Source: Actinomycetes bacterium (lineage in GTDB: Bacteria; Actinomycetota; Aquicultoria; UBA3085; Oleimmundimicrobiaceae). From it: 64,000 nt of DNA. Each line of letters opens with the position of its first letter. The first letter of the stretch is position 1. The notes beneath the pieces were generated by a model, which was not told the DNA's origin, did not search any database, and saw nothing but the letters and a program-made list of their open reading frames with translations. Shown one piece after another: positions 1 through 61,758 of the stretch. The position numbers and the translations under genes were made by a program. The DNA lies in the NCBI GenBank assembly GCA_030614255.1, contig JAUWKI010000004.1:4-64003 (forward strand). The letters are read 5' to 3'.

Positions 1-112
1 TCTGCCATCAGCCATCAGCCAAATAGTTTCTTAGTCGGGAGTTTGTTGGTTTTTTCCTTTACCCTCTCAACTTTCTATCAGCCATAAGCTATCTGCCATC
101 AGCCATCAGCCA
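1..112. repeat. Interspersed repeat copy: (CAGCCAT)n heptads plus a TAGTCGG...GTTTGTTGG module
   Basis: tctgccatcagccatcagcc at 1-20 and ctgccatcagccatcagccatcagcc at 85-110. Related to the copies listed below. Confidence 0.6.
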
Positions 113-1171
113 TCAGCCAAAATATTTCTTTCTCAAGACCGAAGAAAGCTCCGAAGTTAATCTGATGCTCTTTTTCGCCAATTCTTCCGGCATCGAACCG
201 GTACCACAATTTGGCGTGATTAAACTTGCCTCAAGGAGTTTTGTTTTATCTATCCCTTTGTCGACCAACAACCCAATTTTCTCTTCAAATCTGTCAAGAA
301 TACCGTCTAAGGTTTTGCTTGCTATCGCATCAGGACTTGGATAAGTAGATGGAACTATCCCCCACGCAAGAATTCCGTCTCTATTTAAAAATTCATTCAG
401 TTCCTTTGGGTAGAGCGCCACACTTTCGGTATGGTCATACGCATCAAAACTTATAATATCAACAGCAGTTTCCATTAAAATGCTCCAGTCGGTGCGACCG
501 CAACAATGAACACCACAAAGGCCTCCGACCGCATGGAAACACTCATTCAAATAGGATATGACTTCATCTTTATTCAATTTTATATAGGCTGAACCGTAAG
601 ACTGAAGATACGGCTCATCAAAGAAGATGACTGTTTTCACATCGGGGGACAACTTCTTAAATTGTCTCTCTTGCCATTTCGCCTTCATCGTGAGCGTCTT
701 TATGATAGCGTCTCTCAAGAAGTCATTGTAGAGAACCGCTTGTTTGTTTTGGTCGGTAACCGTTAAACCAAAGCTAATCGGACCAATTAGTTGACCTTTA
801 AGTAAAATCAAGTTGCTCGGCAGATTTTTTTCCAATATGCCAATCATGGTATGAAATCCTTGAGCATAATCCTTAGATATTCCGAAATAATTTAGATCTT
901 CAGCCAAGAACCTGTCATAGAATTTCTCAAGCTCCCAAGCCAAATTTTCTCTTGCTTCCACATGAATTTTCTTTTTCTCTTCATCTATTCTTACGCCAGG
1001 CATACCCTCCGAAACTTGAACGCACATGTTCTCCTTAAAAGAAAGGTTGGGAAGTTGTGGCCACGCCGGTATCTGTGGAGTATTCTTTAGAACAACTTCA
1101 CAAGCTTCGGTTGCATCTATCTGTGGCATGCTTCCGATTGTCATCGGGAGACAACGCGGTTTAAACTTCAT
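113..1171 (-). CDS. Core-MetE-like methyltransferase (Meth_synt_2 / cobalamin-independent methionine synthase C-terminal-domain family, ~350 aa short form)
   Basis: N-terminal LPMTIGSMPQ closely matches the MetE C-terminal-domain signature LPTTTIGSFPQT. A candidate His/Cys metal motif (GVHCCG) is present. Length fits short core-MetE proteins. The gene sits at the 3' end of the hdrCB operon. Confidence 0.55.
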   Translation of the reverse strand: MKFKPRCLPMTIGSMPQIDATEACEVVLKNTPQIPAWPQLPNLSFKENMCVQVSEGMPGVRIDEEKKKIHVEARENLAWELEKFYDRFLAEDLNYFGISKDYAQGFHTMIGILEKNLPSNLILLKGQLIGPISFGLTVTDQNKQAVLYNDFLRDAIIKTLTMKAKWQERQFKKLSPDVKTVIFFDEPYLQSYGSAYIKLNKDEVISYLNECFHAVGGLCGVHCCGRTDWSILMETAVDIISFDAYDHTESVALYPKELNEFLNRDGILAWGIVPSTYPSPDAIASKTLDGILDRFEEKIGLLVDKGIDKTKLLEASLITPNCGTGSMPEELAKKSIRLTSELSSVLRKKYFG

Positions 1172-2595: not shown

Positions 2596-2608
2596 TGAGA
2601 AACTCCTT

Positions 2609-2752
2609 TAGTCGGGTGTCTGTTAGTCGGTAGTGGAGAGTTTGTTAGTTTGTTGGATGGTTTGTTTGTTTTTCCGACTCTAAGCCCTCCACTCTAAGCT
2701 CTGTACACTCTTCACTTTTAACTATTAGCCATCTGCCATACGCCATCAGCCG
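2609..2752. repeat. Interspersed repeat copy (AGTCGG-TAG module + CCATCTGCCATACGCCATCAGCC module) in the metF-hdrC gap
   Basis: tagtcgggtgtctgttagtcggtag ... gccatctgccatacgccatcagcc. Confidence 0.6.
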
Positions 2753-3672
2753 ATTTTTGGCCTTGGCAAAAGTCCTGCTTTCTCAACTATCTCAGGCACA
2801 ACTTCCTCCCACTCGATAGCCATGACATGCACACCCGCTACACCTTTTATCTCTTTAACCTGGTTGATAACATCTACGCAGATATTTATACCTTCTTCCT
2901 TGGCTCTCTCTTTCCCGACAGCAGTCATCCTATTGATAACTTCGTCGGGAACATCCATGCCGGGCACATTGTTCTTCATATACCTGGCCATACCAACAGA
3001 TTTCAAAGGAGCAACCCCAGCAAGTATGTAAACTTTTTTATCTAAACCGAGCTCCCGAACCAGCTCCATCCATTTGGCAAACTTTTCAACGTTATAAACG
3101 ATTTGCGTCTGAACAAAGTCAATACCGGCGGTCACCTTCTTGGCAAGCATTAGCACCCTCAATTCAACCGGGTCAGCAAAGGGGCTTTCAGCTGCCCCTA
3201 TAAAGAAACGCGGCTCCACCTTTATCTCCTCGCCACATTGAAATACCTTTTCATCCCTCATATCTTTAACCATTTTGATAAGTTGAATCGAGTCAAGGTC
3301 AAAAACATTTTTCGACTGAGGATGGTTGCCAAATTTTTGGTGGTCCCCGGTAAGACAAAGAAGATTTTTTACCCCTAGAGCAGAGGCCCCCAAAAGATCA
3401 CTCTGTATCGCTATCCGATTTCTGTCTCGACAGGTCATCTGAGCTATTGGTTCAAGACCTTTTGAAATCAACATCGCCGCCGTGGCAATTGAAGACATCC
3501 TAACTATCGCCGTTTGGCAGTCGGTTATGTTTACAGCATCGGCACAGCCCTTTAAAATATCAGCTTTCTTGTAAACAACCTCGGCATCGGCACTCTTAGG
3601 GGGACCGAGTTCGGCAGTTACGGCAAATTTTCCGGCACTTAAAATTTTCTCAAGATTGCTTCCCGATTTCAC
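2746..3672 (-). CDS. metF: Methylenetetrahydrofolate reductase
   Basis: AVTAELGPPKS and other MTHFR signature regions. Coupled to metV. Confidence 0.85.
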   Translation of the reverse strand: MKSGSNLEKILSAGKFAVTAELGPPKSADAEVVYKKADILKGCADAVNITDCQTAIVRMSSIATAAMLISKGLEPIAQMTCRDRNRIAIQSDLLGASALGVKNLLCLTGDHQKFGNHPQSKNVFDLDSIQLIKMVKDMRDEKVFQCGEEIKVEPRFFIGAAESPFADPVELRVLMLAKKVTAGIDFVQTQIVYNVEKFAKWMELVRELGLDKKVYILAGVAPLKSVGMARYMKNNVPGMDVPDEVINRMTAVGKERAKEEGINICVDVINQVKEIKGVAGVHVMAIEWEEVVPEIVEKAGLLPRPKIG

Positions 3673-16153: not shown

Positions 16154-18066
16154 GTGGCCACCCCCTGCTTGCCGGTAGGCAGGTTGGATGCAGTAGATGC
16201 GGTCTTTCGTTCAAATTCCCTGACGACACAACCGGTCGGGCACACACCAATACAAGCCCCGCATTTTTCGCAATATGACTCATCAATGTAGAATCTACTG
16301 CGCTCTTCCACAACTGCCTCATAAGAACACACTTCCTTACAAAGACCACAGAGAAGACATTCCTCCTCGATTATCCTATATCGACCGAGCGCGACGCACG
16401 CTCCGGCCGGACAATACTTATCCCTGATATGCGCCTCGTACTCATCTCTAAAATATCTGATGGTAGAGAGCACAGGGTTGGGCGCACTTTTGCCCAAACC
16501 ACAAAGGGCTGTTTCTTGAATATGTCTGCTAATACTTTCCAGGCGTTCAATATCTCCCTCTTCGCCCTTCCCCTCAACAATTCTCTCCAAAATCTTGAGC
16601 ATCTCATACGTCCCAATTCTGCAAGGCGGACACTTCCCGCAGGACTCCACCTGAGTGAAAGAGAGAAAATATCTGGAAATTTCTACCATGCAATCGGACT
16701 CATCCATCACGACAAGCCCTCCGGAACCCATCATGGCTCCAACCTCATTTAATGAATCAAAGTCAACGGGCAAATCCAGATATTCTTTTGGAATACAACC
16801 GCCACTAGGCCCTCCTATCTGAACAGCTTTAAACTCTTTGTCTCCTAAAATCCCACCGCCTATATCGTAGACAATTTCTCGAATGGTGATCCCCATCGGG
16901 ACTTCGATTAGCCCCGTGTTTTTAACCTTCCCGGTAAGAGCAAATATTTTTGTTCCCGGGGAGCTCTTCGTGCCAATGGAGGTATACCATTTAGCCCCCT
17001 TGACCAATATCGGAGGAATATTCGCAAGGGTCTCGACGTTATTTAAGACCGTCGGCTTACCCCAGAGACCCTTCTCCACCGAACGAGGAGGTGTCGTTCG
17101 AGGCATGCCCCTCTTGCCTTCAACAGAAAACATCAGCGCGGTGGATTCTCCACATATAAAAGCACCCGCTCCACGTTTTATTTCCAAATCGAAATCAAAA
17201 CCACTTCCGAGTATGTTCTCACCCAAAAGACCAAGTTCCCTTGCTTGGTTAATAGCTATCGTTAGATTCTTAACCGCCAAGGGATATTCTTGTCTTACAT
17301 ATATAAACCCCTCTTTGCAATTGCCCAGAGCATAGGCTCCTATTATCATGCCTTCGATGACAGAATGAGGGTCACCTTCCAAAACGCTTCTATCCATGAA
17401 AGCACCAGGGTCACCTTCGTCGCCGTTGCAAACGATGTACTTCACGTCGCTCTCTGTTTTTCGGCCTCCCTCCCACTTTCTTCCCGTCGGGAAACCCGCT
17501 CCACCTCGACCCCTCAGGTTGGATTTCTTAATCTTTTCTATAACTTCATCGGGAGCCATATCATTTAGCACCTTTGCCAGCGCTCCATAACCACCAACCG
17601 TGATATAATCATCCATACTGGTGGGATCAATATGGCCACAATTTCTTAAAACTATGCGCTGTTGTTTGCCGTAAAATAGAATTTCTTCCTCCTTAACAGC
17701 AAGTTCTCCGGTGATGGGGTCAACCACCTGTAGTCGGTCGATAACCTTGCCACGATTTACGGTGAGATCAATTATTTTTGCTGTATCGAACGGATCGACC
17801 TTTTGATAAAAGACATCCAACGGCTCTACGATTACAATGGGACCCTTCTCGCACAAACCCTGACAGCCCGTAGGCCTTATCTCAAAATCAATGCCTTGTT
17901 TTATAGCTTCCGCTTTAAAAGCTTCCACAACCTCTTGCGCACCGGAAGCGCGACACCCAGTCCCACTACAGACTCGAATTATTTTCTTTTTTTGTTTAGC
18001 CCGTTCACTACATATCTTCTCTCTTAAGACACCTAGCTCTTTAGTCTTTTTGAGTCTACTCATCAT
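16150..18066 (-). CDS. NuoF-like NAD(P)H-binding flavoprotein (HydB/HndC/FdhB type) with N-terminal thioredoxin-like 2Fe-2S domain and C-terminal ferredoxin domains
   Basis: GRGGAGFPTGRKWE FMN/NADH motif. ESCGKCPPCRIG [4Fe-4S]. Two C-terminal CxxCxxCxxxCP motifs. Confidence 0.85.
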   Translation of the reverse strand: MMSRLKKTKELGVLREKICSERAKQKKKIIRVCSGTGCRASGAQEVVEAFKAEAIKQGIDFEIRPTGCQGLCEKGPIVIVEPLDVFYQKVDPFDTAKIIDLTVNRGKVIDRLQVVDPITGELAVKEEEILFYGKQQRIVLRNCGHIDPTSMDDYITVGGYGALAKVLNDMAPDEVIEKIKKSNLRGRGGAGFPTGRKWEGGRKTESDVKYIVCNGDEGDPGAFMDRSVLEGDPHSVIEGMIIGAYALGNCKEGFIYVRQEYPLAVKNLTIAINQARELGLLGENILGSGFDFDLEIKRGAGAFICGESTALMFSVEGKRGMPRTTPPRSVEKGLWGKPTVLNNVETLANIPPILVKGAKWYTSIGTKSSPGTKIFALTGKVKNTGLIEVPMGITIREIVYDIGGGILGDKEFKAVQIGGPSGGCIPKEYLDLPVDFDSLNEVGAMMGSGGLVVMDESDCMVEISRYFLSFTQVESCGKCPPCRIGTYEMLKILERIVEGKGEEGDIERLESISRHIQETALCGLGKSAPNPVLSTIRYFRDEYEAHIRDKYCPAGACVALGRYRIIEEECLLCGLCKEVCSYEAVVEERSRFYIDESYCEKCGACIGVCPTGCVVREFERKTASTASNLPTGKQGVAT

Positions 18067-25000: not shown

Positions 25001-25744
25001 TTACATACCCAAAATTGATTTTAGCTCCGAAGCTTTTCTTCGACTGACCGGAACTTCAATTTCTCCCGAAAGACGCAAGATAAAACTTCCATGAAACATC
25101 GGTATAATTTCTTTAGCTTTATGTATATTGACAAGATAACTTCGGTGAGTTCTAAAGAAGCCCCTACTCAAGAGACGGGATTCCAATTCCTTCAAATTGG
25201 AAGAGGCAGGATAAACACCGCCCGTCGCGTGAACAAAAATTCGCTCATTCTGAGCATGTATATAAGCAATATCATTGATTGGCAGTAGAATCATTTTCCC
25301 TTTCTCTTGCACGGGCAAGAGATCCACTCCCGTCTTCTCCCCCTTGACCTTCTTCTTGTGCCCGAGTCTTTTGGGGTCCGCTTTATATCGAGAAACTTTC
25401 TCTATGGTTTGAACAAGACGCTTCTCCTCAAATGGTTTAACCAGATAATCGAGGGCATCGAGCTCAAATGCTTTTACCGCATATTCTCCATAAGCGGTAA
25501 CGAAGACAACCGCTGGCGATGAAGGAAGCTCCTTAATGATTTCGGCTACTTGCAGACCAGTTAACCCCTGCATCTGAATATCCAGGAAGACCACATCATA
25601 ACTTAATGCTTTTATGAGCTCGATTGCTTCATCCGCGTTTGTAGCTTCGCCAACCACCTCGACATTGCTTATCTCTTGCAGCATATATCTGAGCTCTGAG
25701 CGAGCAGGCACCTCATCGTCAACTATTAATGCTTTAATTTTCAT
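25001..25744 (-). CDS. LytTR-family two-component response regulator
   Basis: Receiver domain (LIVDDE..D) and C-terminal LytTR DNA-binding domain. Overlaps the kinase gene stop. Confidence 0.85.
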   Translation of the reverse strand: MKIKALIVDDEVPARSELRYMLQEISNVEVVGEATNADEAIELIKALSYDVVFLDIQMQGLTGLQVAEIIKELPSSPAVVFVTAYGEYAVKAFELDALDYLVKPFEEKRLVQTIEKVSRYKADPKRLGHKKKVKGEKTGVDLLPVQEKGKMILLPINDIAYIHAQNERIFVHATGGVYPASSNLKELESRLLSRGFFRTHRSYLVNIHKAKEIIPMFHGSFILRLSGEIEVPVSRRKASELKSILGM

Positions 25745-27059
25745 TTTTCCCTCCCATTATGGGAATGCGCATCGTAACCTTAGTACCTTTATTCTCTGCG
25801 CTGATTACTTCCAATGCATACTCTTCGCCGTAGAGATTTTTTAGCCTTTCATTTACATTACTTAAACCTATCCCCATCCCCTTACCAAACCCCGGAGATA
25901 GAACTCTACTCAAATCTTCCTCGCTAATACCTTTACCATTATCGCATACTTGAACCGTCATCTCTGAATTATGAATTTTCGCCACTACCCTTATTTTGAT
26001 ATGCCCCTCCGATGTTCCTCCGTGTTTAATCGCATTTTCAACTAGGGGCTGTATAATTAGGGCCGGCATCTTAATCCCCAGGGCTTCTTTGTCTACATCT
26101 TCCAACACCTGGAGATTCTTTCCAAACCTAGCCTTTTCGAAAAACAAATACGAGTCAACGTAATCGATCTCTTCCTCCAAGGTAACCAAGTCCGATTCCC
26201 GTTTAAGTGATTGTCTAAAAAAATCAGCAAATTGGATTATGAGCCGTCTGGCTTTTTTGGAGTCGGTTCTACATAAACTAGCAATAGTGTTTAGGGTGTT
26301 GAAAAGAAAATGCGGGTTTATTTGAGCCTGTAACGCCTTAAGTTCAGCATTACAAGCAAGTTTCTCTTGCCTGTCGATTTCCGAGAGCTCAAGCTGGGTA
26401 CTCAATAGTTTGGCCAATCCTTCAGCAAGTGTTATTCTGCTCTCGGTCAATTCTTCTTTATCAGGATAATAAAATTTTAAAGTGCCAACCGCCTTGCCGC
26501 TCACCTCCAAAGGAACGACTATGGCTGCTCTTAAGGGGCAATCGGAAACGGGGCAACCTATCTCTTCTTTGCTCTCCAAGATTCTTACTTCGTTGTGTTC
26601 CAGAGCTTCTTTGGTTGCCTCCGTTAAAATCGGCCCACCTGTCTTGTGGTGATCCTCCCCTACGCCGGAGAAAGCCAATACCACTGTCAGATCCGTAAGT
26701 GCCACGGCCATCGAGTCGGTTTTTCCCCTCAATATTGCCACAACTTCGCTTCCCGATTCTTCATTAAGACCTGTTCGAAGATACGGCAAAGTAGCATTTG
26801 CTATCTCAAAAACCTGATGTGAGTATATAGCTTTAAAATGCTCGGACTCGCCTTTCTCTACCCATGTCTTCAAAACCACGAATATCACAAGTGCCACAAA
26901 CGGCCCTAATAAAATCAAGCCCCATCCTTCAGAGATTGCTCCGAAACGAGACAGTATCCATCCAAAGACCATGGTGATAAATCCTACGAACATGCTCATC
27001 AGTATCATCTGACGTTTAAATTTATCCGCCCCAAGATGCTCTTTATGTTTAATAACCAT
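25734..27059 (-). CDS. Sensor histidine kinase (LytS/YehU-type His_kinase + HATPase, with TM segments and GAF-like domain)
   Basis: NPHFLFNTLN H-box of the LytS family. C-terminal ATPase G-boxes. Two N-terminal TM helices. Confidence 0.8.
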   Translation of the reverse strand: MVIKHKEHLGADKFKRQMILMSMFVGFITMVFGWILSRFGAISEGWGLILLGPFVALVIFVVLKTWVEKGESEHFKAIYSHQVFEIANATLPYLRTGLNEESGSEVVAILRGKTDSMAVALTDLTVVLAFSGVGEDHHKTGGPILTEATKEALEHNEVRILESKEEIGCPVSDCPLRAAIVVPLEVSGKAVGTLKFYYPDKEELTESRITLAEGLAKLLSTQLELSEIDRQEKLACNAELKALQAQINPHFLFNTLNTIASLCRTDSKKARRLIIQFADFFRQSLKRESDLVTLEEEIDYVDSYLFFEKARFGKNLQVLEDVDKEALGIKMPALIIQPLVENAIKHGGTSEGHIKIRVVAKIHNSEMTVQVCDNGKGISEEDLSRVLSPGFGKGMGIGLSNVNERLKNLYGEEYALEVISAENKGTKVTMRIPIMGGKNEN

Positions 27060-29738: not shown

Positions 29739-29799
29739 TCTCAGTATACCATCGAAGAAATGGTCTGGAAATAACCCATGATAAAAATAGCTTCTGACC

Positions 29800-30118
29800 T
29801 CTAGCCATCAGCCAAATAGCTTGACCTTACGACCTCGATAGCCGATAGCTCAAACCATTTACCATCAGTCCAAAACTAGCTAATTATTCAAAGTTGGTTG
29901 GATAGTTTTTTCCATATGCCATAAGCTACCAGGAAAATTAAAAACTTTTTATTGATTTTGGTTTTCAAAACCCAAGTGGGTTGCTCATGAGGCGACTGTG
30001 CGGCCGACCGTTAAACCTGCCCGCCAATGCCTAACGGCATAATAGGCGTAGGCAGGCGGGTGAATGAGACTTGAATACCTGCGGCACCGTGCCTACCAGC
30101 AGGCAGACCGGTAGGCAG
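29800..30118. repeat. Interspersed repeat cluster: CAGCCATCAGCC module, hairpin module B (CCTGCCCGCCAATGCCTAACGGCATAATAGGCGTAGGCAGGCGGG), module C (CACCGTGCCTACCAGCAGGCAGACCGGTAGGCAG)
   Basis: Module B at 30016-30060 and module C at 30085-30118. Both recur elsewhere in the window. Confidence 0.65.
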
Positions 30119-30151
30119 ATTAGTTAAGCTGGCAATTTAAAACACTAATTC

Positions 30152-32600: not shown

Positions 32601-32753
32601 TCTCTCTTGCCTCCGGTTTAGTTATTAGCCCTTTTTAAATTAAAAAGTTTTCAGATATTGGTATTATATAAATCTTTTAAGACATTTTTAATTTAAAATT
32701 CTAGTTTTTATTTTTTCATTCTCCATTTTTCATTTAATTATACTCTCTACTCA

Positions 32754-34184: not shown

Positions 34185-34212
34185 ATTATCGTATTAACGT
34201 TAATACGATAAT
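34185..34212. promoter_or_regulatory. 28-bp perfect palindrome ATTATCGTATTAACGTTAATACGATAAT between the por operon and lysC
   Basis: Verified base by base. ~210 bp upstream of the lysC start. Confidence 0.4.
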
Positions 34213-37502: not shown

Positions 37503-38099
37503 TCACATCTCTCTTCTCCCTTCCAATGCCTTGCCTAAAGTAACCTCATCCGCATACTCTAAGTCTCCCCCAACCGGCAAACCACTGGCTATTCTTGTAA
37601 CTTTCACCCCAAGAGGCTTAACCAGTTTAGCAAGGTACATGGCCGTGGCTTCACCCTCAATATTGGGATTTGTAGCAATTACTATCTCTTTAACTTTTTC
37701 ATCCTTCAAACGATCCAACAGCTCACGTATTTTTAAGTCATCGGGGCCAATGCCATCAATGGGTGAGATTGCTCCCCCTAAAACATGATAACGCCCCTTG
37801 AAACTACTTGTTTTCTCAATAGCAATAATGTCACGTGGCTCTTCAACCACGCAAATCAATGAATCATCCCGATCAAAATCGCAACACAGTTCGCACATAT
37901 CACCCTCGGTTATGTTGAAGCAAACGTTGCAAAACCCAATTTTATCTTTGACATTCATGATGGCATCGGCCAAATCTTTAGCATTCTCGGGAGAGATTTT
38001 TAAAAGATAAAAAGCCAACCTTTGAGCAGATTTTGGTCCAATGCCCGGAAGTTTTGTTAATTCATCAATCAAAATTGCAACTGGCGCCGCATAATACAC
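37503..38099 (-). CDS. recR: Recombination protein RecR
   Basis: [14 protein letters not shown] HhH motif, C4 zinc finger, Toprim. Confidence 0.9.
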
Positions 38100-38290
38100 A
38101 AAATCACTCCTTTGACCATTAACAATTTACATAAATCAGACTTCAGACACTAGGCTTCAGTTGCTTTGAAATTAATGGTCTTATTCTTAATCTCTACTTA
38201 ATTACTACCTAATCACAACTTAATCTCCTGTACATTTCCAACTTGCTTCTTAATCCTTACCGCTTAATCCTTTACCCTTTACCCTCTACT

Positions 38291-38449
38291 AATCAGTCGG
38301 TAGTCTCTTGGTGGGAAGTCGGTAGTTTGTCGGCCAGATTGCTGGTCTTATTACAACACTCCATACCCTGTTTGCCATCTGCCATAAGCCATCCGCCCCG
38401 CCACCTGCCCGCCAATGCCTAACGGCATCATAGGCGTAGGTAGGCGGGG
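38291..38449. repeat. Composite repeat element D-A-B (AGTCGGTAG module, GCCATCTGCCATAAGCC module, CCTGCCCGCC...GGCGGG hairpin module)
   Basis: Near-identical to the inverted copy at 60876-61018. Confidence 0.7.
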
Positions 38450-38478
38450 AGGCGAGCAAGCATCTGTCATTTACAATA

Positions 38479-38787
38479 TTATGTCAAGCCCGGTATACCC
38501 ATGCCACCCGCAACACTGTTAAGTCTTTGTGAAGCCAAGTCTCTGCTCTGCTCAAGAGCTTCATTGGCCGCGGCAAGAACCAAGTCTTGAAGCATTTCTA
38601 CATCGTCAGAATCTACAACGCTTGGATCGATTTTTACTTCAAGCAATTCTTGCTTTCCGTTCACTACAACCCTGACAACTCCCCCTCCGGCACTCGCTTC
38701 CACTTGCTTCTCGGCTAGCTCTTCCTGAATTTTGGCCATCTCTTGCTGCATTTTTTTGGCCTGCTTCATCAGCTTACCCATATCCAT
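38479..38787 (-). CDS. ybaB: YbaB/EbfC nucleoid-associated protein
   Basis: 102 aa. MQQEMAKIQEEL pattern. Confidence 0.85.
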   Translation of the reverse strand: MDMGKLMKQAKKMQQEMAKIQEELAEKQVEASAGGGVVRVVVNGKQELLEVKIDPSVVDSDDVEMLQDLVLAAANEALEQSRDLASQRLNSVAGGMGIPGLT

Positions 38788-48546: not shown

Positions 48547-50907
48547 ATGATAAAAGTGGGCTCCATCATGTGGGGAAGCCACGTTTCCACACTCGTTCAA
48601 GCAAGCAAGGAGCTCGATTTCGTACAGCTTGAGCTCCGTTCCATGCGCGACTTAGAGGATGAGCTGGTACAAGAGAAGTTTCTGGAGTATCTGCGACAAG
48701 AGGCGGATGTCCTTCTTCTCTATCCGTCCGCAAACGAAGTCTGGAGCGAGATGCTCCCCGAAATTGAAAAAATTAGAAAGGCCGTACCCACCGTCTCCTT
48801 CGGTCACGACCCCTCTTTCTGGAGTCTCTCTACCGTAGATCCCGAGACGGTGGCCACGGCCTATAAATATCTGGTAACCGACGGCTTGGAAAACATGAAA
48901 AGCCTGCTATCCTATATTGCCCGCGAGGTTCTCGATATCGAGATGGAGGTCGAGCCGCTTAAGGAAACGCCATGGCAGGGAATATATCATCCCAACGCCT
49001 CATCGCACTTTGACAACCCTGAAGATTACCTCAAATGGCACAAAAAATTCGACCCCTCCTGCCCCACCGCGGGTATCCTCTTTTATCGCTCTTACTGGAT
49101 AAACGGAAACCTCGAAGTAGAAAACGCTCTTATCCGCGCATTTGAGGATAGGAAAATTAACGTTGTGCCGGTCTTCTCCCACGGCTTTAAAGAAAATGAG
49201 CTGGGGGCCAAAGGAAATGACGTGGCGATCCCCGCTCTACTAACAAGGGATGGCGAGCCAATCGTCGACATCCTGCTCAATTTGCAATCTTTCTTTCTGG
49301 TAACCCTGCCGGAAGGCTCCGATGTCGGCTGCGCTGAGGCGGGTGTAGAACTACTTAAAAAACTGGATGTCCCGGTCATCGACCCCTTGGTTTCCTACCG
49401 CAAAACCGAAGAGGAGTGGAGAGCCGATGTTCAAGGTCTTGCCGAAAACATAGTCTGGTCGGTGGCCATGCCGGAATTTGATGGAATAATTGAGCCGCTG
49501 GTAATCGGGGTTCAAACAAGAGCAAGCGACGAGGAAACCGGGGTTACCCTCGAACGATACATGCCCATCCCGGAGCGGGTCAATCACATCGTTGAGCGGG
49601 CCAAGAAATGGATTCGCCTCCGAAGGAAACCGCCTCAAGAACGAAAGGTCGTCTTCGTTCTGCACAATAATCCATGCGCTGGTGTGGAGGCCACTGTGGG
49701 CAGCGGAGCAAACTTAGATACCTTGGAAAGCGTAGCTAAAACCATGCAAAAGATGAAGGAGCAAGGATACAAGGTCGAAAAAAACCCGTCTGAGGGGAAG
49801 AAGTTAATCGAGACCATCATGGAAAGAAAAGCCATCTCCGAATTCAGATGGACCCCTGTGGAAGAGATTGTAGCAAAAGGCGGGGCACACACCCTCCTTC
49901 CCTTGGAAAAATATCTGGTGTGGTGGAACAAGTTGCCGGAAAATGTGAGAGAGAAGATGGTCTCCACCTGGGGGGAACCGCCCGGCGAAGGGATGGTCCA
50001 CGAAGGAAAAATTGTGCTCACGGGGGTAGAATATGGAAATGTCATGGTTTGTGTCCAACCCAAACGGGGATGCTATGGGGCACGCTGCGACGGACAGGTC
50101 TGCAAGATACTCCACGATCCCGACTGTCCCCCCACTCACCAATACCTGGCCACTTACAGATATCTGGAGGATATCTGGGGAGCCGATGCCGTAGTGCACG
50201 TGGGAACCCACGGCAATTTGGAGTTTTTGCCCGGAAAGGCAGTGGGGCTTTCCGATTCTTGCTATCCCGACATAGGAATCGGCACCCTCCCCCATCTCTA
50301 CATATACAACGCCGACAATCCACCGGAGGGGACCATCGCCAAGCGAAGAAGTTACGCCACGCTGATCGACCACATGCAGACGGTGATGACCGAAAGCGGT
50401 CTCTATGAAAGTTTAAAGGAGTTGGAGGGATATCTGGCCGAATATAACCAGGCTAAAATCTCCAATCCGGCCCATGCTCACGCCCTGGAGCATCTCATCG
50501 TGGACAAAATAAAGGAGTCCAAATTAGAGAAAGAGATAGGGATCGAGGAAAAAGATATTCATGGAGAAGAATCCCTCGACAAAACCGTCAAACGGGCCCA
50601 CGAAGTTTTAACTCGCCTGAGAGAGACCCAAATTCAAGACGGCATGCACATCTTCGGGGAGCTCCCTCAAAGCGACGCCCGAGTAGAGTTCATAAACTCC
50701 ATTCTTCGTTACGACTCGGATGAAGAATTCTCTTTCCGGAAGACAATCTTTGAGCTCATGGACTTAAACTACAATTACGCCTTGAACAACCCCGCCGAAT
50801 ATTACGATGACTTCGGTAAAACCTATGGGGAGCTGCTCGAAGAGGCCCAAGGATACTCAAAGGAGTTCATTAGGGAGTTTCTCGCACACGAAGAGGAGGT
50901 AAATTAA
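48547..50907 (+). CDS. cobN: CobN-like chelatase, N-terminal portion (786 aa)
   Basis: CobN/Mg-chelatase H family motifs (HVGTHGNLEFLPGK, YIYNADNPPEG). Ends at an in-frame TAA. Confidence 0.8.
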   Translation: MIKVGSIMWGSHVSTLVQASKELDFVQLELRSMRDLEDELVQEKFLEYLRQEADVLLLYPSANEVWSEMLPEIEKIRKAVPTVSFGHDPSFWSLSTVDPETVATAYKYLVTDGLENMKSLLSYIAREVLDIEMEVEPLKETPWQGIYHPNASSHFDNPEDYLKWHKKFDPSCPTAGILFYRSYWINGNLEVENALIRAFEDRKINVVPVFSHGFKENELGAKGNDVAIPALLTRDGEPIVDILLNLQSFFLVTLPEGSDVGCAEAGVELLKKLDVPVIDPLVSYRKTEEEWRADVQGLAENIVWSVAMPEFDGIIEPLVIGVQTRASDEETGVTLERYMPIPERVNHIVERAKKWIRLRRKPPQERKVVFVLHNNPCAGVEATVGSGANLDTLESVAKTMQKMKEQGYKVEKNPSEGKKLIETIMERKAISEFRWTPVEEIVAKGGAHTLLPLEKYLVWWNKLPENVREKMVSTWGEPPGEGMVHEGKIVLTGVEYGNVMVCVQPKRGCYGARCDGQVCKILHDPDCPPTHQYLATYRYLEDIWGADAVVHVGTHGNLEFLPGKAVGLSDSCYPDIGIGTLPHLYIYNADNPPEGTIAKRRSYATLIDHMQTVMTESGLYESLKELEGYLAEYNQAKISNPAHAHALEHLIVDKIKESKLEKEIGIEEKDIHGEESLDKTVKRAHEVLTRLRETQIQDGMHIFGELPQSDARVEFINSILRYDSDEEFSFRKTIFELMDLNYNYALNNPAEYYDDFGKTYGELLEEAQGYSKEFIREFLAHEEEVN

Positions 50908-52458
50908 GTGGAAATAAAATTGGATCAGCGGTTAAAGGAGTTTGAAAACCTCGCCACAAACATCATGGGCGACAGATTCATAAATCCCGAAGCACTCGAA
51001 AAACTCTCGGTTCTAAAGTCGAAAGTTTTGGACATCTCCGCCAGGATTGAGGCCTCAAAGGAAATCGAAAGCCTGCTTCACGGACTCTCCGGCGGCTACA
51101 TCGAAAGCGGGCCCTCGGGACTTATCACCCGAGGGAGGGCAGACATCCTTCCCACCGGAAGAAATTTTTACTCTCTCGACCCTTATAAGGTTCCCACCAA
51201 GGCCGCTTGGAGGGTGGGAAGAAGCCTTGCAAACGGTTTAATTGAAAAATATGTGGCAGACACGGAAGAGATGCCCGAGAACTGCGGCATGGTGCTCTTC
51301 TGCACCGATATTATGTGGTCAGATGGCGAGGAAGTATCGCAGATTCTCTATCTTTTGGGCGTGGAGCCGAAATGGTTGAGCAACGGCCGGGTGAAGGGTT
51401 TTCGGATAATCCCTTTGGAAGAGCTCGGCCGGCCCAGAATAGACGTGACCATCCGTATCGGGGGCATAACACGAGATTGCTTCCCCAATATCATGGAGTA
51501 TCTGGACGAGGCAATAACGGCGGTTGCCTCCCTGGATGAACCCTTGGAGCTCAACTTCGTCCGCAAACACGCCCTCGAGCAACTCGACGGCTCTTTGGAC
51601 CCGCAAGCGTGGAGAGAGGCCACTTCCCGCATCTTCGGCAGTCGCCCGGGAACCTACGGCTCCGGCGTAAATCTTGCCGTCTACGCCAGCGCGTGGAAAG
51701 AGGAAGAGGACCTGGCAGATGTCTTTACTTATTGGAGCGGCTACGCCTACGGCAAGGAGATGTTTGGTAAAGAATCCCATGAAACCTTCTTCAAACAGCT
51801 CAAGTCGGTTGATTTGACTTATAATAAGACGGTAACCGACGAATATGATTTATTCGGCTGTTGCTGCTATTTCTCCTATCAAGGAGGACTGACGGCAGCG
51901 GCTAAAAATGCCTCGGGGAAAGAGGTAAAAACCTACTATGGCGACACAAGAAACCCGGCCAAGATCGAAGTAAGGGATTTGGCCGATGAAATTAGGCGCG
52001 TAGTGCGGACAAAGCTTCTCAACCCAAAATGGATCGAGGGAATGAAGCGTCACGGCTACAAAGGAGCCGGTGATATCTCCAAAAGAATAGGTAGGGTCTA
52101 CGGATGGGAAGCGACCACCGAACAGGTCGACGATTGGATATTCGACGAAATCGCCGAAACATTCGTATTAAATGAAGAGAACCGAAAGTTCTTCGAGGAA
52201 AATAACCCCTGGGCCCTGGAAGAAGTGGGTCGAAGGCTTTTGGAGGCCGAACAAAGGGACCTATGGGATGCCAATCCAGAGGTCTTGCAACAATTAAAAC
52301 AAGCTTATCTCGAAATAGAGGGTTGGATGGAAGAAAAAACCGGTGACGTCCAAGGCGAATTTCAAGGAGGAGCGGTGGATGTAATTACGATGGATGAGGT
52401 CGAAGACTGGGGAGAAAAGATGAAGAAGTTAAAGAAAAAATTGCATGGTGGAGGATAA
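50908..52458 (+). CDS. cobN: CobN-like chelatase, C-terminal portion (516 aa), same frame as the upstream ORF
   Basis: CobN C-terminal motifs (ADILPTGRNFYSLDP). GTG start 8 nt after a GGAGG RBS, directly after the TAA. Confidence 0.8.
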   Translation: MEIKLDQRLKEFENLATNIMGDRFINPEALEKLSVLKSKVLDISARIEASKEIESLLHGLSGGYIESGPSGLITRGRADILPTGRNFYSLDPYKVPTKAAWRVGRSLANGLIEKYVADTEEMPENCGMVLFCTDIMWSDGEEVSQILYLLGVEPKWLSNGRVKGFRIIPLEELGRPRIDVTIRIGGITRDCFPNIMEYLDEAITAVASLDEPLELNFVRKHALEQLDGSLDPQAWREATSRIFGSRPGTYGSGVNLAVYASAWKEEEDLADVFTYWSGYAYGKEMFGKESHETFFKQLKSVDLTYNKTVTDEYDLFGCCCYFSYQGGLTAAAKNASGKEVKTYYGDTRNPAKIEVRDLADEIRRVVRTKLLNPKWIEGMKRHGYKGAGDISKRIGRVYGWEATTEQVDDWIFDEIAETFVLNEENRKFFEENNPWALEEVGRRLLEAEQRDLWDANPEVLQQLKQAYLEIEGWMEEKTGDVQGEFQGGAVDVITMDEVEDWGEKMKKLKKKLHGGG

Positions 52459-54229: not shown

Positions 54230-56245
54230 ATGAGTTGTTTAGCTGGTAAAGTATATTCCTTCACCGCAATTGTGGGACAGGACAAGATGAAAAAGGCCCT
54301 GATTTTAAATGTCATCAACCCCAAGCTCGGCGGGGTACTCATCAAGGGCCAAAAAGGAACTGCCAAATCAACCGCCGTTCGCGCTCTTGCCGACCTTTTG
54401 CCCGAAATAGAAGTGGTCGAGGGCTGCCCCTTTGGCTGTAATCCTCACACTGAAGCAGAAATGTGTCCCCACTGTCTTGAAAAAAAGCTAATTGAAGACA
54501 AACTGCCCCTCTCCCACCGGAAAATGAAGGTGGTTACCCTCCCCATCAATGCCACGGAGGATAGAGTAGTAGGAACGTTGGACATAGAGCGCGCGATAAA
54601 ACATGGCGAAAAACGTTTTGAGCCGGGGATTCTGGCGGATTCCCACCGCGGCTTCCTTTATGTTGACGAGGTGAACTTGCTCGATGACCACATAGTTGAC
54701 ATTCTGCTGGACTCCGCCGCGATGGGAGTCAACACCGTCGAGAGAGAGGGGATCTCCTTCTCACACCCCGCCCACTTTATACTGGTGGGAACGATGAACC
54801 CCGAAGAAGGAGATTTAAGGCCACAACTTTTGGACAGGTTCGCACTCTGTGTCGAAGTCGAGGGCATAAGCGATACAAAAGAAAGGGTGGAGATAATTAA
54901 GAGGCGAATGAGCTATGAAAACGACCCTCATTCCTTCGGCCATCGCTGGGAAGACACTCAAGAAAATTTGCGCCGTCAAGTCCTGGCCGCCGAAGCACTC
55001 CTGCCTAAGACAGAGATATCCGACGATATGCTGCACTTAATAGCCGAAATCTGCGTGGGGATGGACGTGCACGGACACAGAGCCGACATCGTGATGATGA
55101 AGACGGCTAAAACTATCGCCGCCTTTCATCAAAGAAGGGAAGTAACCGAGAAAGATGTGAAAGAAGCTGCTGAGCTCGCCCTGCCTCACAGGATGAAGAG
55201 AAAGCCGTTCGAGGAGCAAAAACTGGACCAAGAAAAGTTGGAGCAAACCATCGAAAAACATAAGAAAAATCGGAGCGAACCCGAGCAAGCCGAGCAAGAA
55301 CAGAAAGAACCTCAAGAATCATCACACCGTGCCTACCGACAGGCAGGAAATCAGGATGACCAAAAGGAGGCTCCGGATAATTCGTCTTCAAAAACCTTTG
55401 ATGTCGGAACCCCCTTTAAAACAAGGGATATCAAGATGCCAAAAGACAAGCTTCCTCGCACGGGTGGCGGAAGGAGGGCAAAGAGCGTTACGGGCTCGAA
55501 GTCCGGCAAATATGTTCGGAGCACCATCCCCAAAGACAAGACAACGGACATCGCCCTCGACGCAACCATAAGAGCCGCCGCCATCAGACCGTGCCTACCG
55601 GCAGGCAGGAACGGAAAAAATGAGACCGGAAAGACTGGTTTAAAAATTGAAAAACCCGATTTACGCCAGAAGGTAAGAGAAAAGAAGGTCGGCGCATCCA
55701 TCCTCTTTGTGGTCGACGCCAGCGGCTCCATGGGCGCGAAAGAGAGGATGGTGGTGGCCAAAGGAGCTGTGCTTTCGCTCCTAATCGACGCCTATCAAAG
55801 ACGGGATAAGGTCGGGCTCATAGCTTTCAGGAGAAAGAGCGCGGAGCTCTTGCTTCCATTAACAGACAGCGCTGAAACCGCCCAAAGTTATCTCAGAGAG
55901 CTTCCAACGGGAGGAAAAACCCCTTTGTCCCATGGGCTAACCCTCACGCTTGAGACATTCAATAAAGAAAGGGCCAAAAACAAAAAGGTCCTTCCTCTTA
56001 TGGTTTTAATAACCGACGGGAAAGCCAACGTTTCTTTGAGCGAGAAAAATGCAGTTGAAGAAGCCGGGGAAATCGCGGAAAAATTTGCCGAAGCAAAAAT
56101 AAAAAGCTTGATTATCGACACAGAAAACGACTTCTTGAACCTGGGGCTCGCCAAAGAAATAGCGAACGCCTGTGATGGCGAATATATAAAGCTGGAGGAG
56201 CTTGAAGCGGAGAAATTGGCTCATATGGTTAAGGAAATAAACTAG
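54230..56245 (+). CDS. ChlI/ChlD-like chelatase subunit (AAA+ ATPase fused to vWA/MIDAS domain)
   Basis: N-terminal AAA+ (GQKGTAKST). Acidic/Pro-rich linker. C-terminal vWA with DASGSM MIDAS. Confidence 0.8.
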
Positions 56246-56273
56246 CTAAAAATCAACGAGTGGGCAATGGGGG

Positions 56274-57143
56274 TCAGGTCTTGTTTTTTGACATTTCTTC
56301 TTCTTTTGTGATTCTGCTTATCGTCGAATAGTGCATCTTGAGATGATTGGCAATTTCTTTCTGGCTGTAGCCATATTGCTCTGTTGCCTCCACTATCTTC
56401 TTATTTCTCATCTGTTTATTCTCCAATATTCTTTTCTTAAACAAACTTTCAAGACTTGGTCTGCCAACATATCTTTGGTGCTTAGGAATATCCTTTATTT
56501 TTTCCTGTCCTTTTAAATAACTTTTAAATTCCTCAACAAAATCATTATCGCCAAGCAGGATTTGTCCTTTTGCCTTTATCCAAATTGATTCTTCTTCTAT
56601 TCCTGCCTTAACAAACTCTCTGTATCTTTTCCTTGCCGGTTTTATCTTTGGGCCAAATTGAGCTAAAACCCAGTTTGTTGTGAGGCAGGGATGAGGTTTT
56701 TCCAAGCCGGCAGTAGCACGATAACTGCCATATCTCCATTCTTCGGGGTCTTTAACCAGCTTTGCTCTTATGGGGTTTAAGACCACGTATCTGCAGACCT
56801 CAAGAAGATGGCTTTCTTTCTGGATGAGTATGGCTTTGTATCTTCCTTGAAAGATGTGACCCACCCTGTGATGCTTTTTATTGAAGGTCTGTGTGTATAC
56901 CCCGTTTAGTTGTCTCATGCCCTTGGAGAGATTTCCATCGGGAGTTTCGATAATTAGATGGTAGTGGTTATTCATCAGACAATAAGCGTGGCAGATAAAA
57001 TTGTATTTCTTGTTTACACTTTTGAGAACGTTTAGAAAGATTTCTTGGTCTTTTTCATCATAAAATATGGGCTTCTTTTCATTGCCTCTTGATGTTATGT
57101 GATATATAGCTCCGCTGTATTCTATCCTTAAAGGTCTTGCCAT
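56274..57143 (-). mobile_element. RAYT/IS200-like Y1 transposase (HuH) with C-terminal HTH domain, flanked by imperfect inverted repeats
   Basis: NHYHLII HuH motif and RYVVLNP Tyr region. Inverted repeats GGGGTCAGGTCTT...GACAT at 56270-56294 and 57173-57197. Confidence 0.7.
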
Positions 57144-57228
57144 GAAATACTTGTAACATATCTAATGATTTAATGTCAAGATTAAAGACCTGACCCCTTT
57201 TGCTTTTGTGCTTTTGCAAACTCTGATA

Positions 57229-59212: not shown

Positions 59213-60292
59213 TCAGTTCGTATCTTTATCCGTCTTTACCTTGTCACCATCTTTTAATTTTTCGGTTCCCGAGATGATAACCTCATCACCGATTTTTATA
59301 TCTCTTCTTATCTCAACATGCGTATCGTCGGAAAGACCCACTTCAACTTCCCGCTCCTCGACAACGTTATCCTTTAAAACAAAAACTACATCTTTCCCGT
59401 CTCTTTCCAACACCGCCTCTATCGGCACCGTGACAACATTATCTTTTGTGGTCTCTATAACATCTGCACTACCATTCATGCCAATTTTTAAATCGAGAGG
59501 CGTCGATTCAAGCTCAATCTCAACGGGGAAAACTGTAGCACCCGTGGCCGTAACTGAGGATATGGAGCCAATCTTAACTACCTTCCCTCCAACAAGTTCG
59601 TTTGGATACGCGTCTATTACAACCTCGGCCTCTTGCCCCATTTCTATCCTTCCGACATCGGTTTCATCCACATTTGCAACAAAATTCATCTTGCTTAAAT
59701 CAGCTACGGTAAAAAGGACTTGCCCTTGTTGGACAGCACTTCCAATAATCAATTCGCCACCCTGTCCCATCGTTCCCGAAGTCGATGTCGAGTAGATAAG
59801 AATTCCATCTATTGGAGCTGTTATTTTTACATTCGCAAGGTTCTTTTTGGCAATCTCATAAGCCATCTCGGCTTGCTCAACCTGAGCTTCGGCCGCATCT
59901 AACTCCTCGTCAGAGGTTCGTGGAATCGAATCCAGTTTTTCCAAATTTGCCTTGGCGGAAAGATGCGCTGCATATGCCTGCTTCTCCGCAAAATTTAATT
60001 GCTCCTCATCTAATTCGAGAATCATATCATCCTTTTTTACTTTGGAGCCATCCTTGGCAAGAAGTGCTTTAATTGTGCCACTTACATTCGCCGTCACTTC
60101 TTCTTGATTTCTCGCTTCGAGTTCCCCTGATGCGGAAACAACAATAGAGATGGTGCCCTTCGTTGCTTTTGCCACCTCTACCTCAGTCACACCATTTCTA
60201 AGGAAGAAAAATCCAACCAGTCCAATTAAAATTAAAGCAATCAAAACAGAAATAATCACCCAAGTCTTTTTCTTCATATTAATCCTCCCCAT
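59213..60292 (-). CDS. Efflux periplasmic adaptor protein (HlyD/MacA family)
   Basis: N-terminal TM anchor, coiled-coil and beta-barrel/lipoyl-like segments. Overlaps the marR stop. Confidence 0.8.
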   Translation of the reverse strand: MGRINMKKKTWVIISVLIALILIGLVGFFFLRNGVTEVEVAKATKGTISIVVSASGELEARNQEEVTANVSGTIKALLAKDGSKVKKDDMILELDEEQLNFAEKQAYAAHLSAKANLEKLDSIPRTSDEELDAAEAQVEQAEMAYEIAKKNLANVKITAPIDGILIYSTSTSGTMGQGGELIIGSAVQQGQVLFTVADLSKMNFVANVDETDVGRIEMGQEAEVVIDAYPNELVGGKVVKIGSISSVTATGATVFPVEIELESTPLDLKIGMNGSADVIETTKDNVVTVPIEAVLERDGKDVVFVLKDNVVEEREVEVGLSDDTHVEIRRDIKIGDEVIISGTEKLKDGDKVKTDKDTN

Positions 60293-60875: not shown

Positions 60876-61153
60876 CCTGCCCGCCTCTGGCGGGGCTGAT
60901 AGCGTATGGCAGATAGCAGATGGTGAATGGAATACAGAGTATAGAATGTGGAATATAGTAAAATCAGTAATTTGGCCGGCAAACTACCGACTTCCCACTA
61001 AGAGACTACCGACTGATTGGTAATGGGTATAGTTAAATGAAAAATGGAGAATGAAAAAATAAAAATGTCTTTAAGGATTTTTGTAAGACCAGCAATCTAG
61101 AAAACTTTTTCATTTTTCTATGTAGTTCTACCTGCCCACTGATAGGCACGGTG
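60876..61153. repeat. Composite repeat element B-A-D in inverted orientation, plus module C (inverted) at 61131-61153
   Basis: Reverse complement of 60974-61018 is CCAATCAGTCGGTAGTCTCTTAGTGGGAAGTCGGTAGTTTGCCGGCC, matching 38291-38336. Confidence 0.7.
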
Positions 61154-61205: not shown

Positions 61206-61475
61206 ATGACCGTGCACCCGCCTTCGACATTAAACTACAAGCGAAATCCCGACAGTTAACTCCAGTCAGGTGAACCTGCGGCACCCGGTAGTTCTTGCTT
61301 ACCGCTGCTTCCTTCCGGACCTGACGGGGTTCACAAGCTGCCGTCGCACAGGACCCAACCTTCAATGCCACTTATCAAAATTCCGTTCTCATAGCCAATG
61401 CCTCCGGAGGGAATTCAGTCCCGCTATAGCGGATTGCGGGTACAGGGCACCGCTAACTCCCCACTTAGCACGGTC
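61206..61475 (-). ncRNA. ffs: Signal recognition particle RNA, long (Bacillus/archaeal type with Alu domain)
   Basis: Minus-strand sequence contains CAGGTCCGGAAGGAAGCAGC (domain IV). The 5' region GGTGCCCTGTACCCGCAATCCGC aligns with the B. subtilis scRNA Alu domain. Ends GACCGTGC/GCACGGTC pair. Confidence 0.75.
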
Positions 61476-61602: not shown

Positions 61603-61758
61603 CGACCCCTCCCAAAAACAGCTAATAGTTTATAGTTTCCAGTCATAAATTTCGAGTATCCACAGGATTAGAAGTGAATGGTAAAAACTGCTTTTATTTC
61701 TTGCTTTTCACTCTTTGCTCTCATCTACCGACTGTCGACTCCTCACTACCAACTAAAT

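Follow-up and report, generated by a model that had tools for sequence, protein, structure and literature searches.

A composite, heptad-based repeat in intergenic gaps of a Candidatus Oleimmundimicrobium-like actinomycete

What is the composite of short sequence modules that lies between the genes ybaB and recR at positions 38291-38449 of the window (on contig JAUWKI010000004.1), and how does it come to be repeated elsewhere? The window, by which we mean the whole 64,000-nucleotide stretch of DNA analysed here, corresponds to nearly the whole of ENA contig ERZ4220937 NODE_81, a metagenome contig of a Candidatus Oleimmundimicrobium-like actinomycete of the class Ca. Aquicultoria. Here we report an analysis of this element, which is probably one copy of a lineage-specific, mosaic, intergenic and non-coding repeat that combines heptad slippage and seamless small units with a conserved core, D-E. 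The family is a mosaic repeat of the kind represented by bacterial interspersed mosaic elements (BIMEs), short tandemly repeated repetitive (STRR) sequences and small dispersed repeats (SDRs), and it is not a miniature inverted-repeat transposable element (MITE).

Two full copies are present in the window. Copy 1 is flanked by the genes for YbaB (38479-38787) and RecR (37503-38099); copy 2, which is reverse-complemented, is flanked by the large signal recognition particle RNA gene ffs (61210-61473) and a MarR-family gene (60279-60743), both placements agreeing with the initial annotation of this DNA. Module D at 38291-38336 (+) is identical to 61018-60973 (-) at 44/46 positions (blastn-short, E 2.6e-16), the match extends to 77-nt inverted arms at 86% in a repeat search, and a gapped search aligned 154 nt of the two composites at 75% (E 3e-24). 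Self-alignment had been proposed as the check that the copies are alike beyond low-complexity matches; these E-values, together with the shuffles described below, exclude chance or low complexity. The ~160-bp D-A-B composite described earlier stands as far as copy 1 is concerned, where D, A and B are all present at 38291-38449, but B is missing from copy 2, which ends in a simpler hairpin, S, instead; the true second B (44/46 identical) lies at 30015-30060. The composite is also longer than this segment; TTACCCN heptads ahead of D and the conserved E block belong to it, and copy 2 additionally holds modules F, G and P, reaching ~61153. An all-against-all comparison took in 23 intergenic gaps of the window, and related genomes and contigs (numbered with the prefix L) were compared with it, amounting to ~240 kb of lineage DNA, much of it chosen for carrying D. 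The parts of the two copies are as follows.

38257..38290, + strand: TTACCCN heptad array in the upstream flank of copy 1 (TRF period 7 at 38257-38289); like heptads stand before every D copy.
38291..38329, + strand: AATCAGTCGGTAGTCTCTTGGTGGGAAGTCGGTAGTTTG, the D core of copy 1, in which the decamer AGTCGGTAGT appears twice at a 22-bp distance; 39/39 identical to L008 12117-12079 in the argG-argH gap; fold z -0.3.
38330..38355, + strand: E block TCGGCCAGATTGCTGGTCTTATTACA, conserved immediately 3' of D; the D-E nhmmer profile scores 81.8 bits here.
38356..38397, + strand: CTCCATA-type heptads, then module A (GCCATCW, 38374-38397); lag-7 identity over 38180-38400 is 0.44 against 0.27 when shuffled (z 5.8).
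38391..38461, + strand: degenerate S arms (38391-38402 and 38449-38461) around the 45-nt B (38404-38448), from the comparison of L012 with L013 and from the fold.
60876..60898, - strand: S hairpin closing copy 2 at its distal end; this 23-mer is also found after the stop codon of ybaB (L013, L018) and of selB (L006).
60899..60979, - strand: A heptads, CTCCATA-type heptads and a diverged E block of copy 2 (TRF period 14 at 60894-60923; lag-7 z 6.6).
60980..61018, - strand: copy-2 D core, matching that of copy 1 at 38/39 positions, with ACTACCGACT twice, 22 bp apart.
61019..61153, - strand: extension of copy 2 with TTACCC heptads, F (TTTTTCA heptads, 61033-61065; 97% identical to 32705-32743), G (61061-61105) and a P-like 21-mer (61131-61151).

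All full copies share one layout, in which TTACCCN heptads lead to the D core AATCAGTCGGTAGTCTCTTRGTGGGRAGTCGGTAGTTTG, the E block YYGGYCAGATTGCTGGTYTTAYYAYA, CTCCATA or CTCTAAG heptads, GCCATCW heptads and, often, the S hairpin. Over the mosaic the heptad types run in a conserved order, TTTTTCA, TTACCCN, AGTCGGT (the D core), GTTTGNN/E, CTCCATA or CTCTAAG and GCCATCW (A), with the GC-rich S hairpin last. The 7-nt period runs through the whole composite and is not confined to module A, a point which goes beyond the initial annotation: identity at lag 7 is 0.44-0.56 in the composites against 0.27 in shuffles (z 5.4-7.4), whereas z ranges from -0.8 to 1.3 in controls consisting of 5 other gaps and 1 coding stretch. 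The decamer AGTCGGTAGT occurs twice in D, 22 bp start to start, in both copies. The exact 9-mer AGTCGGTAG has 6 occurrences in the window, all of them intergenic; with up to one mismatch it has 16 matches against 6.2 expected, a count reached in 0/100 shuffles. Conservation is uneven along the composite, with D-E at 96-100% and the remainder at ~60-75%. Folded as DNA, D does no better than shuffles (z -0.3), and none of D, E and A forms a hairpin. A repeat search with a 6-nt seed found no terminal inverted repeats at the ends of copy 1 or copy 2.

Parts of the composite recur in at least five further gaps of the window (1-112, 2596-2745, 29739-30151, 32601-32753 and 61613-61758), one more than the minimum of four first reported. 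Module A, seen at 38374-38397, also occurs at 1-21, 77-119, 2728-2751 and 60888-60923. The partial and solitary copies are the following.

1..130, + strand: partial copy with GCCATCA heptads, AGTCGGG-GTTTGTT, TTTACCC and GCCATCW (lag-7 z 7.4).
2602..2763, + strand: partial copy sharing its module order with the preceding one, AGTCGGT, GTTTGTT, CTCTAAG, GCCATCW (profile E 0.005; lag-7 z 5.4).
30015..30060, + strand: the second copy of B, solitary, 44/46 to copy-1 B (fold z -4.2).
30087..30107, + strand: P-like unit adjoining this B (sequence match).
32659..32750, + strand: F and G modules only (repeat search and gap comparison).
61720..61758, - strand: D-like AGTYGGTAGT heptads immediately 3' of tRNA-Ser(cga) (lag-7 z 4.6).

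The gap at 29739-30151 is 413 nt long in the window and contains A heptads, B and overlapping P-like units. The orthologous gap is 89-112 nt long and module-free in 4 relatives, and the downstream promoter TGGTATAMT is kept.

Three of the modules are small hairpins, namely S (23 nt), P (21 nt) and B (45 nt), and all fold as hairpins, as do the imperfect palindromes of 20-40 bp that characterize repetitive extragenic palindromic (REP) sequences. S is a simple hairpin, CCTGCCCGCC-TCT-GGCGGGG at 60876-60898, which has only its stem sequence in common with B. B, at 38403-38448, folds into an imperfect hairpin of 46 nt (-16.2 kcal/mol as DNA, z -2.6), in agreement with the hairpin anticipated for it, and in copy 1 it is nested within the loop of an S-type hairpin, a second point that the initial annotation did not have. 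The nesting can be read from L012 and L013, which encode identical RecR proteins and have nearly identical spacers: in L012 the 45-nt B lies between the TC and the T of the loop in CCTGCCCGCC-TCT-GGCGGGGCA, in L013 the hairpin is intact without B, and the B of the window is at the L012 position. The borders of B have no flanking direct repeats able to delete exactly 45 nt.

P is seen as an insertion inside a gene. Within the cobaltochelatase-like gene at 54230-56245 a 30-mer occurs twice, in a different reading frame each time, and protein and DNA alignments resolve each occurrence into an exact 21-nt insertion of P, CCGTGCCTACCG(A/G)CAGGCAGG.

55327..55347, + strand: P unit 1, an in-frame 21-nt insertion, absent from the conspecific L020 and L021, in which the flanks are otherwise identical.
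55589..55609, + strand: P unit 2, in the same gene and in the other frame, absent from L022, L023 and all other aligned homologues.

The empty sites are exact, CATCACA^AAATC for unit 1 and CATCAGA^AATGG for unit 2; the neighbouring sequence is the heptad-like ATCA(C/G)A. The units add 7 residues each, HRAYRQA and RPCLPAG, in a disordered linker of the protein. Target-site duplications, which had been suggested as a check, were absent from all three clean filled/empty junctions (the two P sites and B), and with the absence of terminal inverted repeats this disposes of the earlier likeness to MITEs. In the ~240 kb of lineage DNA there are ~14 P-like and 5 S-like copies. None of the S copies bears an unpaired GTAG or CGTC tag, their flanks reading ...GCTAT/CAGCCCCGCC...GGCAGG/CACAAG and alike, and GTAG occurs in P, B and D internally only.

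Further small hairpins were observed in the lineage DNA. Some split D-like cores at one point, just before GGGAGT (L008 8094-8114, L006 ~6640-6660, L016 1222-1271); these include the 21-mer CCCCGTCAGGACCGGGCAAGC and a 50-nt hairpin also ending in GGGCAAGC. A 21-nt hairpin splits a D core in L008, and L006 has a 20-nt insertion between D and E. Other coding sequences contain P-like 21-mers as well, namely the dnaX linker of L014 (9099-9119) and the 3' end of a NuoF-like gene of the window (16164-16184). The L014 DnaX sequence (KPCLPTG) was considered as a third coding insertion and is not assignable, the linker alignment being unreliable. Another hairpin repeat, GAGATTGCCAC...TCGCAATGAC, is interleaved with heptad modules at L011 3640-3690 and 3865-3900 and at L031 ~9750-9810; it presumably resembles a repeat known from many anaerobe metagenomes.

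Comparison with relatives shows the modules being gained, lost and recombined. Modules D, E, A, S, B, F, G and P are combined differently at at least 10 gaps, all between co-directional genes, which bears out the earlier description of an interspersed modular family. D-E occurs at unrelated sites elsewhere, namely argG-argH (L008), selB-tRNA-Sec (L006) and two copies in L011, and the window and L008 share D at 39/39 positions although RecR is only 84% identical. Rfam places the L006 element beside tRNA-Sec and selB, and this locus was accordingly rejected as an orthologue of copy 2 at ffs. The ybaB-recR spacer measures 379 nt in the window and 475 and 434 nt in two strains of one relative; it is 84 nt long with two heptads remaining in L014, 183 nt with half a D only in L016, and 227 nt in L018, where it is made of S, F, G and P without D. 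At the ffs-marR gap D-E-A-S is missing from L016, L027 and L029. In L016 and L029 the TTACCC heptads lead directly to the conserved marR promoter, and in L027, whose MarR is 92% identical, there is a skeleton only, consisting of TTG, TTTTACTATA and AGCAAT. The ffs-marR gap of L031 holds the composite that is found at ybaB-recR in L016. Downstream of the composite the marR promoter and an operator-like palindrome are conserved independently of it. Heptad number differs between strains, and conspecific short-read contigs from other samples stop within D or A at both loci, as is expected because these are parts of a multi-copy repeat.

The ybaB-recR spacer itself (38100-38478) is 96.8% identical to L012 9526-10000 over 372 columns, with one ~130-nt stretch perfect, against 80.6% and 80.2% DNA identity for ybaB and recR and 60-88% for other gaps in the zone. 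Identity between the window and L012 rises to 92-95% in genes farther upstream, and since these stand beside flanking genes at ~80%, both genomes are mosaics. The spacer may have been protected as an island in that divergent donors lacked a homologous spacer; recent transfer or constraint may explain it as well.

The distribution of the core is narrow. Among the GTDB species representatives scanned, an exact match to the D-derived 19-mer GTGGGAAGTCGGTAGTTTG was present in only two, Candidatus Oleimmundimicrobium americanum UBA3085 and the Actinomycetota metagenome-assembled genome SpSt-1170, both placed in class Ca. Aquicultoria, order Subteraquimicrobiales. A 23-base D-core pattern is present in 4 JGI metagenome contigs, and the RecR of the window is 84% identical to that of Ca. 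Oleimmundimicrobium sp. No mention of the genus name Oleimmundimicrobium, and no published description of repeats for this acetogen-like lineage, was found in the literature searched.

Other origins for the composite were considered and rejected. A structured RNA was discounted, as the D-E fold has a z of -0.3 and Rfam gave no match at gathering score or at E <=1; over the whole window only ffs and two tRNA-Ser genes reached the gathering score, and nothing in the two composite gaps had an E below 0.08. Open reading frames (ORFs) of 56-59 aa across copy 1 are not frame-conserved, given the 20-21-nt insertions in L006 and L008 and the variable heptad counts, which speaks against a small protein. 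The 9-mer AGTCGGTAG is like a tRNA D-loop, but ARAGORN finds just the two tRNA-Ser genes, and a tRNA-derived element was discarded. D and B have no match in IMG/VR, and a phage origin was likewise set aside. A promoter consensus scan found no promoter inside copy 1 or copy 2.

The orientation of the composite follows a rule. At all loci adjoining protein-coding genes (9/9; sign test p ~0.004) it is antisense, the hairpin lying 10-15 nt past the upstream stop codon and the mRNA carrying the purine-rich strand; after ffs and tRNA-Ser it is sense-oriented, in 5 genomes. Because GC skew simply follows gene strand, the rule is tied to transcription and not to replication, and a replication-linked orientation was rejected also on the ground that copy 2 is inverted though its neighbour genes run in the same direction. 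We infer that selection acts at the transcript level. Judging from its motifs, the pyrimidine-rich strand (CTCC, TACCC) could, for example, be disfavoured in mRNA through pairing with ribosome-binding sites, and the hairpin that follows the stop codon of the upstream gene probably serves as a 3'-end or stability element.

One gene of the window qualifies as a candidate mobilising enzyme, and its discovery answers the earlier suggestion to look for a cognate REP-associated tyrosine transposase (RAYT).

56264..57203, - strand: RAYT-family gene (56274-57143) with its own 32-nt inverted repeats, from profile matches.

The gene is intact and its product has 289 aa with a C-terminal helix-turn-helix extension; it matches Pfam Y1_Tnp at E 2.8e-14 and NCBIfam NF047646 (REP-associated tyrosine transposase) with 99.8 bits against a cut-off of 80, and the IS200 model with only 17 bits. 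Its closest solved relative is E. coli TnpA-REP, with which the HUH and catalytic tyrosine motifs were aligned. RAYT-type enzymes move hairpin DNA without target duplication (PMC2817692, PMC3333891), and cognate RAYT genes are flanked by their own REPs in inverted orientation (PMC2817692). Here a 32-nt inverted repeat, GGGGTCAGGTCTT...TTGACATT, brackets the gene; it bears no relation to D, A, B, S or P and occurs at no other place in the window. A decayed, internally deleted miniature with the ends of the RAYT unit and ~the first 33 codons lies at a different locus in L014 (6208-6380), and the gene itself was seen in a single genomic context. A RAYT gene is therefore present, but its assignment as the cognate enzyme of the modules was rejected, as its flanking repeats are unrelated and known only there and in the L014 miniature. 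No DDE transposase is present in the window.

Several known systems resemble the family in part. In working it would appear closer to the STRR and SDR sequences of cyanobacteria than to BIMEs. Elhai et al. in 2008 reportedly described in cyanobacteria STRR heptamer arrays and SDR hairpin units of 21-27 nt, which are nested, sometimes intragenic, and present or absent precisely and without target duplication. The window family likewise has intergenic tandem heptad arrays (TRF period 7; lag-7 z 5.4-7.4 against ~0 in controls), a P of exactly 21 nt at two sites, B nested in S and a unit inside a gene. It differs from SDRs in that its host is an anaerobic member of the Actinomycetota, another phylum, that its sequences are presumably unrelated, and that its heptad types stand in fixed order around a long non-palindromic D-E core; to our knowledge no orientation rule relative to genes has been described for SDRs. 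BOX elements of Streptococcus pneumoniae have the structure boxA-boxB(n)-boxC with modules of 45-59 bp, and the whole element is a stable stem-loop. They are similarly modular, intergenic and not autonomously mobile, with variable inner units between conserved end modules; the window family has no sequence relation to them, is heptad-based and leaves D-E unfolded. Rickettsia palindromic elements, of ~100-150 bp, are in-frame insertions in protein genes. They are selfish palindromic DNA tolerated in frame in coding genes, as is P in the cobaltochelatase linker, although P has only 21 bp and both taxonomy and sequences are unrelated.

The earlier comparison with REP sequences and BIMEs proved apt in part, though the family is neither REP nor BIME in the strict sense. 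Like them (PMC2817692, PMC3733652, PMC3333891), the family is a mosaic of short motifs with imperfect GC-rich palindromes, lies between co-directional genes just past coding regions, has occasional intragenic copies and is accompanied by a RAYT-family gene in the genome. REP hairpins bear an unpaired GTAG or CGTC tag at one end (PMC3733652), whereas the hairpins of the window have none, and the RAYT gene is flanked by an unrelated inverted repeat. The composites also lack the alternating inverted REP pairs of BIMEs, having one terminal or nested hairpin and consisting mostly of non-palindromic heptad DNA. REPs reach tens to hundreds of copies per genome; the counts for S and P are those given above, from ~240 kb.

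In the mechanism that we propose for the mosaic repeat, heptad arrays would grow and shrink by slippage, consistent with the strain-level variation in length, and the GC-rich palindromic units S, P and B would come and go seamlessly and without target duplication, consistent with the presence and absence observed. The movement of these small units may be a single-strand 'peel and paste' by an HUH/Y1 enzyme such as the RAYT of the window. The 65-75-nt D-E core, near-invariant across loci and genomes, would be kept by sequence-specific protein recognition, the recogniser being either a mobilising enzyme or a host DNA-binding factor. Whole composites would be gained, lost and exchanged between gaps that separate co-directional genes, and beside protein genes they would be tolerated in one orientation only.

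Several observations weigh against this mechanism. The copy number is modest, with ~8 D-E copies in the ~240 kb of lineage DNA and 2 full copies in the 64-kb window. For D no clean pair of filled and empty junctions was obtained, and what looks like 'mobility' could be due to gene conversion or ectopic recombination from gap to gap. The identity of the spacer with that of L012 may be a remnant of the clonal frame, not necessarily a sign of selection or transfer. S has no U-tract and the consensus scan does not back a terminator role. To judge from the sequences, no enzyme is linked to the modules, the RAYT gene being bracketed by its unrelated repeat.

An account without any transposition would draw on heptad slippage together with ectopic recombination or gene conversion, the hairpins arising through palindrome-mediated replication errors. 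The strong 7-nt periodicity, the variation of heptad number by strain, the mosaic genomes with 92-95% identity beside ~80%, the swapping of the same composites between the ybaB-recR and ffs-marR gaps across genomes and the lack of a transposase tied to the modules all suit it. Slippage and palindrome errors nevertheless explain P poorly, because its two independent, near-identical insertions of exactly 21 nt fell in non-repetitive coding DNA, in different frames and between unrelated flanks; nor are there direct repeats bordering B by which 45 nt could be deleted, and D is identical where the flanks have no homology to support recombination. We consider this account unlikely, and far less credit is due to a classical MITE, that is, an insertion sequence reduced by deletion, bounded by terminal inverted repeats, moved by a DDE transposase and leaving target duplications. 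The length of 150-280 bp, the intergenic position and the multiple copies would agree with a MITE, and L014 does hold a true miniature, derived from the RAYT unit, though without relation to D, A and B. Terminal inverted repeats are lacking from both copies, however, no clean junction shows a target duplication, conservation is patchy where it should be uniform, the modules also occur apart, and the window has no DDE transposase. Hardly more plausible is a locus-specific cis-regulatory leader or attenuator, belonging to recR in copy 1 and to the marR operon in copy 2. Each copy does lie upstream of a gene start, and at ybaB-recR the spacer identity with L012 is 96.8% beside flanking genes at ~80%. 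Yet the element is oppositely oriented at the two loci and stands at unrelated loci in other genomes; genomes that are just as closely related lack it at the orthologous gaps, and the marR promoter and its operator-like palindrome are conserved whether or not it is there.

A regulatory reading of a different kind would make D-E-heptads-A-S a small transcription unit, in which the AGTCGGTAGT decamers with their 12-bp spacer form a LytTR-type operator, a TAYYAT -10-like motif follows ~25 bp downstream and a ~100-nt C/U-rich RNA ends at S, the whole being a family of regulated small or antisense RNAs. LytTR sites, such as those of AgrA, ComE and YpdB, are two direct repeats of 9-10 bp with a spacer of 12-13 bp, placed immediately 5' of the -35 region of the promoter that they control, and the decamers, repeated 22 bp start to start in both copies, have this geometry. 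The stretch 25001-27059 encodes a response regulator of the LytTR type together with a LytS-type histidine kinase that contains a GAF domain; TACTAT or TACCAT stands at a fixed distance after D in copy 2, L006, L008 and L011; the unit closes with a strong hairpin; and D-E is its most conserved part, as an operator with a core promoter might be. Against this, the consensus scan found no promoter in either copy, the motif is TATTAC, lacking the final T, in copy 1, L012 and L013, and in L006 the 20-nt insertion separates D from E. Unlike most small RNAs, the supposed transcript is the part that is conserved least and that varies through heptad slippage, and there is neither an Rfam match nor a U-tract at S. 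Upstream of the two-component operon itself no D-like direct repeat of an autoregulatory kind was found. On this evidence such a transcription unit is a doubtful candidate. A bolder version, to which we likewise give only a small chance, combines the two ideas: D-E might be a mobile LytTR-type operator/promoter cassette, and the 21-nt units might be actively moved, scarlessly and even in frame into protein genes, by a RAYT-like HUH enzyme, as an actinobacterial counterpart of the cyanobacterial small repeats. The length of 21 nt equals exactly three heptads or seven codons.

The window has other features that lie outside the repeat family. Its first 25 kb (113-24874) hold a complete-looking Wood-Ljungdahl cluster with carbon monoxide dehydrogenase/acetyl-CoA synthase subunits, a corrinoid protein, RACo, formate-tetrahydrofolate ligase, FolD, MTHFR and an Hdr/Mvh-like set, which fits the acetogenic lifestyle proposed for the actinobacterial class Ca. 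Aquicultoria. A perfect 28-nt palindrome, ATTATCGTATTAACGTTAATACGATAAT, lies at 34185-34212 in the 411-nt gap upstream of the pyruvate:ferredoxin oxidoreductase genes and looks like an operator. Another perfect palindrome, of 14 nt (ATTATACGTATAAT, 63786-63799), lies upstream of the PemK/MazF toxin pair at 63213-63753, and the toxin-antitoxin operon is probably autoregulated through it. A CobN-type chelatase at 48547-52458 is split at a TAA into two adjacent ORFs of 786 and 516 aa; the split looks genuine and not a frameshift, because the second ORF has a GAGGAGG ribosome-binding site ahead of its GTG.

The mosaic repeat is in one respect ordinary, being a known kind of bacterial 'junk or regulatory' repeat in a group for which none had been described. 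New in an anaerobic actinomycete is the combination of strict heptad periodicity, fixed module order, a long invariant non-palindromic core, nested seamless units of 21 and 45 nt and an orientation rule. In practical terms the family explains why metagenome assemblies break at particular gaps of this lineage, and it advises caution in annotation, as short 'hypothetical ORFs' in such gaps and 7-residue inserts such as RPCLPAG are repeat artefacts. How very small repeats move is reportedly a question that has been open since their description in cyanobacteria, and the strain-level filled and empty sites for the 21-nt and 45-nt units, one pair of them in an essential-looking gene, are suited to its study. 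The near-invariant D-E core probably marks a sequence-specific DNA-binding activity worth looking for, and if D-E were a portable operator/promoter and the small units were moved by an HUH enzyme, the element would be a mobile regulatory cassette and not inert filler.

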